Positions 36,060 to 40,644 of a stretch of DNA of 64,000 nt are shown piece after piece. Both the position numbers and the translations under genes were made by a program. Each line of letters starts with the position of its first letter. Positions within the stretch are counted from its first letter, which is position 1. Under the pieces are notes generated by a model, which was given only the letters and a program-made list of their open reading frames with translations, made no database searches and was not told the origin of the DNA. This DNA comes from Candidatus Saccharimonadales bacterium. GTDB taxonomy: Bacteria > Patescibacteriota > Saccharimonadia > Saccharimonadales > UBA4665. The stretch is from the NCBI GenBank assembly GCA_050730755.1, contig JBOHNR010000008.1, positions 79,968 to 143,967 on the forward strand, in the 5' to 3' direction.

Positions 36060-36548
36060 ATGAGCGAGAAACTAACTGATCCCTCAAAAATGCTCAGACC
36101 AACCAAGAAACAACGCCAGCTACTGACATATATTGAGCAGTTTATTACTGAACACGGCTACAGTCCCAGTTATCGGGAGATAATGACCGGGCTTAATTAT
36201 ACTTCCGTGGCAACGGTAGCACTGCATGTTAATAACCTTATATCGCGCGGTCATTTAAAAAAGCGCGGCTACTCAGCTCGTTCTATAGAGTTAACCAACC
36301 AGGTAGGGGAGTTGTTAGTTACGACCAATCAGGTTGAACCGGCCGAAGAAAAATGGCTGGTTCAAAAGGTCGAACACAGTTTCAGACAAGTTGAACAATC
36401 AGGTGGACTCTTCAGTGACAGCCAACTTAATGGTTTATATATTTTAGTCGGAGCCTTGAATGTGCTTGGTCTGGAGGCTGCCGCCCAAAGCTTCCAATCT
36501 CGTCTGAGCGTACTCAAAAAACGCTCTACCGATCGCCGACCAGCTTAG
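36060..36548 (+). CDS. LexA-type winged-helix DNA-binding-domain protein lacking the S24 peptidase domain
   Basis: PTKKQRQLLTYIEQFITEHGYSPSYREIMTGLNYTSVATVALHVNNLISRGHLKK matches the LexA N-terminal domain. The C-terminal 90 aa show no Ser/Lys autoprotease motifs. Confidence 0.55.
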   Translation: MSEKLTDPSKMLRPTKKQRQLLTYIEQFITEHGYSPSYREIMTGLNYTSVATVALHVNNLISRGHLKKRGYSARSIELTNQVGELLVTTNQVEPAEEKWLVQKVEHSFRQVEQSGGLFSDSQLNGLYILVGALNVLGLEAAAQSFQSRLSVLKKRSTDRRPA

Positions 36549-38570: not shown

Positions 38571-38584
38571 ACTAAACGTTAACA

Positions 38585-38715
38585 ATCAAAACCGGAATCA
38601 GGGTGAAATTCCCTGGCTGTGCCGCAACTGTTATAGCCAGATACGGTTAAAGTCTCCCGAGCAGGAGCGGCGAATTGATTAAAAAACCCTGGCTCGGCAA
38701 AAGAGTGAGGGTATT
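38585..38715 (+). promoter_or_regulatory. Candidate cobalamin (B12) riboswitch, compact/variant type
   Basis: Core string AACCGGAATCAGGGTGAAATTCCCTGGCTGTGCCGCAACTGTTATAGCCAGATACGGTT (38590-38648). It contains a CAGGG/CCCTG hairpin with a GUGAAAUU loop, GCCGCAACTGT (consensus CCCGC[AC]ACUGU) and AGCCAGATAC (B12-box-like AGCCAGGAGAC). The closing helix is AACCG/CGGTT. A CCGAGC-AGG/CCT-G-GCTCGG hairpin (38657-38697) and SD GAGGG (38707-11) follow. Confidence 0.55.
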
Positions 38716-38723
38716 TTTTAAAA

Positions 38724-39881
38724 GTGGCCGCAAGAGCTGAAAAGCTACCTGGACAATATGACAATCACGATCAAATTGATCGTCAGTTAGGTTTATACGA
38801 TGAAGCTTCGACTTTATTCGCCGAAACTCTTGATGGCAACATGCGGACCGAGTTTTTACTCCGCTTTGACGGAGAAGAGCTTTATAGTCACGACGGCCAG
38901 GCCTTAAAGTCTGTTTTTCAGGATTCGATAAATGCGGCTGAGAAACTAGCCGAAAGCCAACCTAATTTTTTATTCGAACTAAGACGACGTCAAATCGAAC
39001 TAGAAGAGTATCAGGATATGCTGGCTTTGGCACGAAGTGGAAAGCATAACACCATGGTAGTAGTATCGGACTTTCCACCTGAACTGATGACTGCAAAAGA
39101 AAGTATGGGTGGCTATAATAAAAGCCGCCAACAAACGATGTTAAGAGTCATTACGCGGCAAGCTGGCGGGTCGCTGAGAATGATCTCGCAGAGCTTGGAT
39201 CGTTCCAACCGCCCAGCTCTGGAGGCTATTTACGCTCATTTCGGACTTAAACCAAATGACGGCGAATTGTTAGGCCAGCGGATCTTCACTGAAATTGCCC
39301 AGGAAGAGCAAGTTTATCTGGATGATTTTTTAACTGGTCTTTATGATAAGTCTTTGACTGATCAATACGGTGGTCATTGGTATGCTGGGCGAAGTAGTGG
39401 AGACACCGACAACACCTATGACTTTGTCAGGCGGCAATCTGATTTATTGCACTATTATGTCCAGTCCAGGCTAGATAATTCAGATTGGGTTGAAAAACTA
39501 GACTATAACGTGGCGGCAACTTTTGCCAAACGTTTCAAGCGATATTCAGAGCTTAAATATGACTACCAGTTTAACCCCTCTGGACTACCCCACAATCTAA
39601 TGGCTGAAGTAGCCAATGACGGCGCCAAAGCTCAGGCTCAAGGTCTTAGTTTCAACAGCTGTGGTACTACGCTTGGGCCGTCTGAATCGGATCTTCAAAA
39701 GGCCGGTTATGGGAATAAGACAAATGAAGCTAGTTCGTATAAGTTTGATAAAAAGATGTACTGCGTTGTTTGCCAGGTACCACCCAAAGAAACCGAGAAA
39801 CCGAAAATGTGCGGACCTTGCGGCATCTGTCAAAAGTGTGACCTAAAACTTAGTAGTCACCCAAAAGTCACAGTCATTTAA
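38724..39881 (+). CDS. Uncharacterised 385-aa protein with a C-terminal six-Cys cluster
   Basis: Long clean ORF. GTG start 12 nt after GAGGG (first in-frame ATG only at 38838). No TM or signal peptide. C-terminus MYCVVCQ-x14-CGPCGICQKC (zinc-ribbon-like). I recognise no family. Confidence 0.55.
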   Translation: MAARAEKLPGQYDNHDQIDRQLGLYDEASTLFAETLDGNMRTEFLLRFDGEELYSHDGQALKSVFQDSINAAEKLAESQPNFLFELRRRQIELEEYQDMLALARSGKHNTMVVVSDFPPELMTAKESMGGYNKSRQQTMLRVITRQAGGSLRMISQSLDRSNRPALEAIYAHFGLKPNDGELLGQRIFTEIAQEEQVYLDDFLTGLYDKSLTDQYGGHWYAGRSSGDTDNTYDFVRRQSDLLHYYVQSRLDNSDWVEKLDYNVAATFAKRFKRYSELKYDYQFNPSGLPHNLMAEVANDGAKAQAQGLSFNSCGTTLGPSESDLQKAGYGNKTNEASSYKFDKKMYCVVCQVPPKETEKPKMCGPCGICQKCDLKLSSHPKVTVI

Positions 39882-39981
39882 GTAAAGATTAATTTAAGAT
39901 AACTATTTCCCGATCAACCAGGTGTCAATTCATTCAAATACCAACCTAAGATTGGTCTAATCGGATTTTTTCAATAAGTTT

Positions 39982-40644
39982 CTAGCTTGGATTTTGCTTA
40001 GCTATGGCCGCATTCAGATAGGTCGAGAAGGCAGCCACGCTTGGTTCATCGTTAGAACCGATCAGATTTTCGTTATTTAAAGTTTTACCGTCAAGAATAA
40101 AGGTGGGTGTGGCCATTTCGTCGCCAGTCTTATTGAAGGCAGCGATGTCAGCGTTGATAGCGTTATTGACTTGATTGCTGGCGTAGTCCTTGTTAAAAGT
40201 AGTCATATTTAAGCCAAGTTGTTTGGCATAGGAATCGAAGTAGGTTAGGGGGTTACTCGATGATACCCACTGGGTTTGGTTATCGTAAAGTAAATCGTGC
40301 ATCTGCCAGAATTTATTCTGGTCACTGGCCGCTTCAGCTGCCCGAGCACCGGCAAAAGCATTAGGGTGAATTTGGGTCAGCGGCAGATTACGGAACTGGA
40401 ACTTTATTTGAGTTATATAATCGGCCACGACTTGCTTAACTGTCGGGTAAAACTCTTCGCAAATAGGGCATTCATAATCGCCATACTCGATTAAGGTAAC
40501 ATGTTTAGTGTCACTGCCCTCGACATGCTCAGTTGGCTTAGTGTTAGTATTGCCTGAGTTTGCCTGATTATGATTAGTCACTAAGACAATGCCACCAAGT
40601 ATAGCCGCGATAATTATAACTGCTAACCAAAATTGTTTTGACAT
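39982..40644 (-). CDS. DsbA-family thiol:disulfide oxidoreductase, membrane-anchored
   Basis: N-terminal TM and thioredoxin-fold CxxC (YECPICEEFYP). Confidence 0.7.
   Translation of the reverse strand: MSKQFWLAVIIIAAILGGIVLVTNHNQANSGNTNTKPTEHVEGSDTKHVTLIEYGDYECPICEEFYPTVKQVVADYITQIKFQFRNLPLTQIHPNAFAGARAAEAASDQNKFWQMHDLLYDNQTQWVSSSNPLTYFDSYAKQLGLNMTTFNKDYASNQVNNAINADIAAFNKTGDEMATPTFILDGKTLNNENLIGSNDEPSVAAFSTYLNAAIAKQNPS

Follow-up and report, generated by a model that had tools for sequence, protein, structure and literature searches.

What is the function of a protein of no known family or fold, when its gene is the only one under direct vitamin B12 control in its genome? This question is raised by a locus of Candidatus Saccharimonadales bacterium that lies in a stretch of 64,000 nucleotides, here called the window (GenBank assembly GCA_050730755.1, contig JBOHNR010000008.1, positions 79,968 to 143,967 of the forward strand). 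There, an AdoCbl-II (class-II cobalamin) riboswitch precedes an open reading frame (ORF) at window positions 38724-39881 on the plus strand, whose protein product we call T. Saccharibacteria live as obligate epibionts and have genomes of 0.6-1 Mb, and in this lineage the synthesis of DNA precursors relies wholly on a vitamin that the bacteria cannot make. We infer that T works in the axis connecting B12 with NrdJ, the B12-dependent class II ribonucleotide reductase (RNR), because it is the dedicated target of the riboswitch, is confined to genomes in which NrdJ is the only RNR, and sometimes shares an operon with uptake genes. It probably marks an undescribed step in the B12 handling of these bacteria. 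The source genome of the window, numbered G000, comprises 648 kb in 17 contigs and is 96% complete; L- and G-numbers below refer to related loci and genomes.

A sequence-only reading of the window had proposed a candidate B12 element upstream of T. This element is a genuine AdoCbl-II riboswitch: its aptamer at 38576-38653 (plus strand) scores 46.2 bits (E 2.6e-10) against the Rfam model RF01689, which has a gathering score of 36.5, and it is the only cobalamin riboswitch in the 648-kb genome. R1, a lineage-specific covariance model made from 20 leaders of T loci, has one match in the 64-kb window, at 38575-38657 with 81.7 bits. The aptamer fold is also borne out by covariation. In an alignment of 66 leaders, which is biased toward pairing as it was fitted to the covariance model, 99.5% of the cells are paired and 7 of the 13 pairs show compensatory double changes. 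The cells changed on both sides number 131, a value reached by none of 500 shuffles, and slid controls of the same alignment are 22-55% paired.

The link between riboswitch and T holds across the relatives. Applied with strict filters to 50 genomes that carry a homolog, the Rfam model yielded 33 matches, 31 of them directly upstream of a homolog on the same strand, a count that allows for partial protein matches. A scan with R1 over both strands of 67 sources (713 kb) returned exactly one match per source (67/67). The match lies just before the T gene in 65 sources; in L034 and L092 it stands before two uptake genes, which T follows within one operon. Homologs that are never linked to cobalamin riboswitches or B12 genes would have pointed elsewhere, and this case was checked: all 67 loci have an upstream riboswitch on the same strand. 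Outside the class Saccharimonadia, a weak relative of T (genome G359, locus L097, E 4e-4) is found behind an AdoCbl-II aptamer of 38.3 bits and retains an A-C-G loop and a C-terminal CxxC...CxxC. In the window itself T is, as had been proposed, the sole gene downstream of the element on the plus strand. The next gene, encoding a DsbA-like thioredoxin (39982-40644), runs on the minus strand, and T is therefore the only gene that the element can control here.

The leader between aptamer and gene suggests how this control would operate. Right after the aptamer, CCCGAGC (38656-38662, plus strand) begins a conserved block, CCCGAGCAGGAGC, that is kept in nearly all related leaders. Within it, CCGAGC (38657-38662) could pair with GCUCGG (38692-38697) as a putative anti-terminator or anti-sequestrator. 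The expression platform stands directly before the start codon of T and contains a terminator-like hairpin (38686-38719, plus strand), made of the 5' arm ACCCUGGCUC (38686-38695) and the 3' arm GAGUGAGGGU (38703-38712) and followed by AUUUUUU; the 3' arm includes the Shine-Dalgarno sequence GAGGG (38707-38711). The hairpin at 38686-38712 appears in the minimum free energy as well as in the centroid fold. A promoter and terminator scan of the plus strand was uninformative and did not flag it, because its stem has an internal mismatch. Leaders of relatives follow the order aptamer, CCCGAGCAGGAGC block, variable hairpin, conserved stem, ATTTTT and start codon, and more than 25 of them carry the arrangement ACCCTYGCTC...GAGCRAGGGT, ATTTTT and start codon.

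Read in this way, the leader of T would follow the usual OFF logic. With cobalamin bound, the aptamer would hold its 3' flank CCCGAGCAGGAGC, and the hairpin ACCCUGGCUC/GAGUGAGGGU with its U-run would form directly ahead of the GTG of T, stopping transcription, hiding the Shine-Dalgarno sequence, or both. With cobalamin absent, the CCCGAGCAGGAGC flank would instead pair with GCUCGG and T would be made. The leader also contains a 21-codon upstream ORF at 38675-38740 (plus strand) that has a TTG start, with AGGAG 7 nt upstream, and overlaps the start of T in another frame. We rejected it as a real leader gene, as it is not conserved in related leaders and is probably due to chance.

The ORF at 38724-39881 is a real gene. 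The ORF itself, its homologs, a conserved N-terminus and an AlphaFold2 model together define a soluble protein of 385 aa (43.6 kDa, pI 5.5) that starts with GTG. The start codon had been regarded as uncertain between GTG at 38724 and ATG at 38838, and is now settled as the GTG, the sole possible start. Upstream of it the frame stays open for 5 codons only (open frame of 390 aa), and M40 is preceded in frame by no further ATG, GTG or TTG. Five invariant residues (T30, A33, E34, L36 and G38) all lie N-terminal to M40, and T shares the start M-A-A-x-A-E with several homologs. The protein has neither a transmembrane segment nor a signal peptide, just as the sequence-only reading had it: the 19-residue Kyte-Doolittle mean peaks at 0.48 and the N-terminus is unlike a signal peptide. 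Over the 120 closest homologs, the median of the corresponding maxima is 0.79.

The physiological context is set by a single enzyme. G000 encodes only one PF02867 protein, NrdJ, identified by NF005122 with 1366 bits against a cut-off of 859. A class III RNR (NrdD) was not found in G000, and the B12-binding domain PF02310 was found neither there nor in 39 relatives (40 genomes in all). With NrdJ as sole RNR and PF02310 not found, the one visible use of B12 in these genomes is adenosylcobalamin for NrdJ. The G000 enzyme ends in a six-cysteine tail, CxxC-x9-CxxCxxC-x5-C, and such a C-terminal tail is known from NrdJd (PMC5704485). Its locus on contig C11 (9740-13552), outside the window, runs from NrdR through NrdJ (948 aa) and a 90-aa thioredoxin-fold protein without CxxC to IleRS; no B12 transporter or adenosyltransferase was found near it. 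A B12 importer beside nrdJ or cobA was also looked for in G000 and 12 relatives and was not found; the flanking genes there encode NrdR, IleRS, ATP synthase, a small thioredoxin-like and a glutaredoxin-like protein. The adenosyltransferase CobA occurs in 28 of the 40 genomes, and in all NrdJ-type relatives tested except G054 and G066, which carry PduO; in G000 no PduO-type adenosyltransferase was found. That T could itself be the missing adenosyltransferase was rejected: although PduO is absent, essentially all T-bearing NrdJ-type relatives have CobA.

T follows NrdJ closely in its distribution. We sampled 151 genomes spread evenly over the class, 46 of them from the order Saccharimonadales. 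A close-family profile of T matched 9 of the 151; a broad profile, together with hidden Markov model and jackhmmer searches of the ORFs downstream of riboswitches, added G088, G103, G109, G118, G163, G178, G190 and G196, and G181 is probably a member too. All T-positive genomes of the sample fall in the order. Within it, the RNR is of NrdJ type in 25 of 46 genomes, and T is present in 17-18 of the 25, counts that ignore kinship. The 15 genomes with a class I RNR, one of which was verified as NrdA (NF005101, 1132 bits against a cut-off of 988), contain neither T nor the riboswitch (0/15 for each). The same is true of the 6 genomes without a PF02867 protein (0/6 for each), and NrdD is present in both of the two that were checked. 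T was found in none of the 21 genomes of the order that lack NrdJ. The contrast recurs inside a single family, f2, in which G106, G133 and G175 have NrdJ and T and the class I members have neither. The co-occurrence of T homologs with NrdJ, a check that had been suggested, thus turned out as a restriction of T to NrdJ-type genomes in the sample of the order.

The riboswitch also ties T to the uptake of B12. In L034, whose T is 40% identical to that of G000, the riboswitch (246-340) is followed by a DUF4430 protein of 137 aa (388-801), a DUF6580 membrane protein of 179 aa (786-1325), T (1325-2548) and nadD (from 2575), and the reading frames of the operon overlap. L092, from genome G072 of another family, has the riboswitch, DUF4430, DUF6580 and T in the same order as L034. 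DUF4430 is the C-terminal domain of transcobalamin-type binders (PMC4350170), and DUF6580 is a membrane protein resembling the S-component of energy-coupling factor (ECF) transporters. The proposed link of T homologs to B12 genes is therefore seen directly, with T placed third, after DUF4430 and DUF6580, in the riboswitch-led uptake operons of two lineages. Members of Saccharimonadia that lack T have the AdoCbl-II riboswitch before DUF4430 and DUF6580 (L065, L066) or before DUF4430 and a prenyltransferase-like toroid protein (L074, L076, L079). As these sister lineages place uptake genes behind the same riboswitch, B12 acquisition is a usual target of the AdoCbl-II switch in the class.

Although T had been described as an orphan, it belongs to a sizeable family: a word-indexed search gave 409 homologs and an exhaustive profile search 457 clusters at 50% identity. 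Nearly all are 350-500 aa long. Every traceable homolog is from Saccharibacteria, and the loci encoding relatives all lie in metagenome-assembled genomes of this group. The statement that T has no placeable motif held, as nothing rises above cut-off in Pfam or NCBIfam. In Pfam this applies to T, 34 close members and 62 diverse members alike. NCBIfam and PHROGs gave no match to T, nor did PADLOC, in which one distant member has a single 17-bit match, and no relatives were found in the PDB by sequence or by profile. An unrelated family, for example a phage structural protein, was considered as well: there is no phage, defence or other family match, and no solved or viral predicted structure is alike. 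We found no paper linking Saccharibacteria, cobalamin riboswitches and T.

Despite this isolation, the protein is predicted with confidence. The AlphaFold2 model, built with 34 sequences, has a mean pLDDT of 86.8 and a pTM of 0.76, with 269 residues at a pLDDT of at least 90. Foldseek searches with the model returned nothing from the PDB (best E 0.067, TM at most 0.16) or from BFVD (best E 0.023, TM 0.10), and we treat the predicted fold as new with respect to these two collections. Conservation was assessed over the 62 diverse members of the family, which are 15-54% identical to T. Near-invariant among them are T30, E34, R88, S115, S157, D159, Y207, D208, G222, C366 and C369. A soluble protein with a confident fold and near-invariant polar residues looks like an enzyme or a ligand binder.

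The cysteines deserve separate attention. T has seven: a C-terminal cluster of six and C313, which the sequence-only reading had overlooked. The cluster itself was described correctly except for its spacer, given as x14; the actual pattern is C347-x2-C350-x12-C363-x2-C366-x2-C369-x2-C372 (39762-39839, plus strand). C313 and C347 are present in all 62 members, C350 in 52, C363 in 19, C366 and C369 in 57 each and C372 in 54. T and its close relatives have the full six-cysteine layout, and it is C363 that is mostly absent in the wider family. The pair of CxxC knuckles of zinc-ribbon or treble-clef type, C347/C350 and C366/C369, is kept in 52-62 of the 62 members. All matches of T to curated zinc-finger models stay below threshold, for example zf-HC3 with 14.1 bits against a cut-off of 25. 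From its pattern, the tail is presumed to be a metal-binding zinc ribbon accompanied by spare cysteines. In the model, Cys313 sits at the tip (S-C-G) of a predicted beta-hairpin, F310-L317 (39651-39674, plus strand), with strands at 310-312 and 315-317; the following glycine, G314, is found in 43 of the 62 members.

These observations bear out the proposal that a position behind a B12 riboswitch makes a soluble protein of unknown fold a candidate for some undescribed role connected with cobalamin, a proposal supported by the links to riboswitch, uptake operon and NrdJ. Our tentative preference, held with somewhat less than even confidence, is that T is a B12-repressed cytoplasmic cobalamin-handling protein that serves NrdJ. 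T would act on scavenged intracellular cobalamin and so secure the adenosylcobalamin supply of NrdJ, the only B12-dependent enzyme. It might capture cobalamin from the importer, reduce, decyanate or dealkylate it by thiol chemistry involving Cys313 and the cysteine-rich zinc-ribbon tail, and then deliver it either to the adenosyltransferase CobA or to NrdJ. We favour such a role because genes that share importer operons under cobalamin riboswitches are typically handling genes, because sister lineages use the switch for acquisition, and because T combines an invariant exposed cysteine with spare cysteines beside a presumed zinc ribbon.

Several observations weigh against a handling role. In sequence and fold, T resembles none of the known cobalamin binders, transporters, reductases, decyanases or adenosyltransferases (Pfam, NCBIfam, PDB and Foldseek, with BtuF, BtuM/DUF6580, CbrT, DUF4430/transcobalamin, CblC, CobA, PduO and PF02310 among the proteins compared), so that any activity assigned to it is pure inference. 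Most T-bearing genomes, G000 included, lack DUF6580 and DUF4430 and have no recognisable importer; within the order DUF6580 was found in G072 only, and T and uptake genes share an operon in two lineages only. CobA was not found in the G000 assembly. In relatives SmpB is encoded a few genes from cobA, and in G000 it is cut by a contig edge (C1:61-162); because this usual neighbour sits at the edge, the absence of CobA may be an assembly gap. About six genomes of the order with NrdJ and CobA show neither T nor the riboswitch, and T is therefore not indispensable for NrdJ. The association of T with NrdJ was, moreover, counted over genomes that share ancestry. Finally, the handling model does not explain why a nadD-like gene is tightly linked 3' of T in about two thirds of the loci.

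This last point leads to a different reading, in which T responds to B12 without acting on cobalamin or nucleotides, for instance as a zinc-ribbon regulator that binds nucleic acids, or as a factor connected with NAD metabolism by way of the co-transcribed nadD; we consider this unlikely, though not negligible. That B12 would then serve as a signal only, for example of contact with the host, is likewise doubtful. In 46 of about 60 loci, among them L001, L005, L009, L013, L022, L025 and L034, the gene directly 3' of T encodes a nadD-like cytidylyltransferase (PF01467, with HxGH and ISSTxIR-type motifs). Often the two genes are spaced by only -4 to 26 nt, a distance so small that the riboswitch would repress nadD jointly with T. 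Zinc ribbons often bind nucleic acids, and in one family, f21, the riboswitch also precedes genes that do not look B12-related. However, the riboswitch of T is kept where nadD is absent, as in L012, L028, L044 and G000, in which no nadD-like gene occupies 39882-39981 of the window and no nadD match was obtained anywhere in the assembly. T also follows NrdJ in its distribution, not nadD, and the polar residues conserved across its globular body of 300 aa suggest an enzyme or ligand binder over a simple DNA binder.

T could also provide a B12-independent bypass. Switched on when cobalamin is lacking, it would supply deoxyribonucleotides without NrdJ, as a new reductase or a salvage enzyme. By analogy with known isozymes this is conceivable, and we rate it as rather improbable. 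It would suit a genome with NrdJ as its sole RNR and sole recognisable B12 enzyme, and it fits the restriction of T to NrdJ genomes and the lack of a recognisable B12 importer in most T genomes. The tail of T, CxxC-x12-CxxCxxC-x2-C, is laid out like the electron-shuttling tail of NrdJ, CxxC-x9-CxxCxxC-x5-C (PMC5704485), and an invariant cysteine at a hairpin tip recalls the radical cysteine in the finger loops of RNRs. One version of this idea, which we regard as very unlikely, has T as a thiyl-chemistry enzyme of new fold that secures deoxyribonucleotides without B12, or as a factor that lets NrdJ run without adenosylcobalamin; Cys313 on its finger-like hairpin could then be the radical or redox cysteine, to which the RNR-like cysteine-rich tail would deliver electrons. 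Against a bypass stands the protein itself: with its 385 aa T shows no RNR or glycyl-radical barrel in Foldseek, where no RNR or glycyl-radical enzyme appeared among the matches (best TM at most 0.16), and it has no RNR match in Pfam or NCBIfam. Profile comparison gives no homology to the C-terminal domain of NrdJ, and C363 of the six-cysteine array is present in just 19 of 62 members. Moreover, NrdJ, CobA and the riboswitch are all kept, which means that B12 reaches the cells, and T can sit inside an uptake operon, where handling genes are typical and bypass isozymes are not.

That T is a redox partner of NrdJ, either the reductant of this class II RNR with a cysteine-rich tail or a factor reactivating NrdJ with damaged cofactor, is improbable: although NrdJ enzymes with a cysteine-rich domain (CRD), such as that of G000 with its cysteine-rich tail, have no known native reductant, thioredoxins and glutaredoxins being ineffective (PMC5704485), and although T has a similar cysteine layout and strictly co-occurs with NrdJ, a protein on which NrdJ turnover depends ought to be produced in the presence of B12, not repressed by it, some NrdJ genomes lack T, and T never adjoins nrdJ in the loci examined.

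Returning to cobalamin handling, the comparison with known systems shows what T shares with them and where it departs. Uptake and processing operons under cobalamin riboswitches in Gram-positive-type bacteria (ECF-CbrT, solitary S-components of BtuM type, transcobalamin-like DUF4430 binders, btuFCD-btuR) use the same kind of OFF switch (RF01689), and in two lineages T is co-operonic with DUF4430 and the ECF-S-like DUF6580. Yet T is soluble, has no likeness to any component of these operons, and mostly stands alone behind the switch. CblC (MMACHC) is a decyanase and dealkylase, and a cysteine of BtuM ligates the cobalt of B12 and decyanates the vitamin. To these proteins T bears a conceptual likeness only, in its invariant exposed cysteine, its redox-capable cysteines and its co-regulation with B12 uptake; it has no fold or sequence match to their solved structures in the PDB. 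The B12-independent isozymes MetE, NrdAB/NrdEF and NrdDG are reportedly controlled by cobalamin riboswitches. Like them, T would be repressed by B12 where a B12-dependent enzyme performs an essential reaction, but it is unrelated to them by sequence or fold, and catalysis could be assigned by analogy only.

A resemblance in sequence pattern is to the CRD of NrdJd, or the separate NrdJb, with which T shares a C-terminal array of six cysteines in the order CxxC, linker, CxxCxxC, short spacer and C. In NrdJ, four of these cysteines bind zinc and two shuttle electrons (PMC5704485). The spacers are x12 and x2 in T but x9 and x5 in NrdJ; not all six cysteines are conserved throughout the T family, as one of them is not, and the 300-aa body of T is unrelated to RNRs. 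We rejected an identification of the tail with the NrdJ CRD, as hhalign of the T-family profile A1 against the C-terminal 270 aa of the G000 NrdJ gave a probability of 0.9% (E 0.064) over 13 columns.

Regulation by an OFF riboswitch is ordinary, and the novelty lies in the regulated protein, which has no known family or fold. Its function would fill a gap in cobalamin trafficking, be it as a new binder, as a reductase or decyanase, or as a bypass, and would bring a protein family of new structure into B12 biology. It would also help to explain how bacteria of the Candidate Phyla Radiation (CPR) obtain and use cofactors derived from their hosts. If the bypass were true, ultra-small CPR bacteria would possess a previously unknown B12-independent route to deoxyribonucleotides. 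With a small, soluble protein and a confident model, T is practical to study.

The wider neighbourhood of T is a strongly conserved synteny of LexA-like helix-turn-helix (HTH) protein, UppP, T, nadD-like protein, Na/H exchanger, DsbA-like protein, CNNM/CBS protein and AspRS, mostly housekeeping genes. In the loci examined T was seen next to neither nrdJ nor cobA. The distant metagenomic members L098 and L099 share it, and no extra B12 genes were seen in their contexts. The LexA-type HTH protein, which has no peptidase domain, is encoded at 36060-36548 of the window (plus strand) and has counterparts two or three genes upstream of T in 41 related loci; its presence looks like synteny rather than a functional link. 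Two homologs appear disrupted (G112:C2:233944-235143, L015/L090; and L059:786-2147): a TGA interrupts the frame of one close homolog, and another falls into two ORFs. They may be pseudogenes or sequencing errors, and hint that T is dispensable in some lineages.

Other genes behind the AdoCbl-II riboswitch were also encountered. In f21 (L063, L064, L068, L069, L073), another of the lineages without T, it precedes an acidic low-complexity ORF rich in proline (620-790 aa) and a ClpB-like protein of 579 aa with a double AAA+ module, a target without obvious connection to B12. L075 (G058:C7:2400-6900) presents a second, weaker AdoCbl-II match of 29.8 bits before a 789-aa protein of no known family, and the same genome, G058, also has a riboswitch before its own DUF4430-DUF6580 pair.

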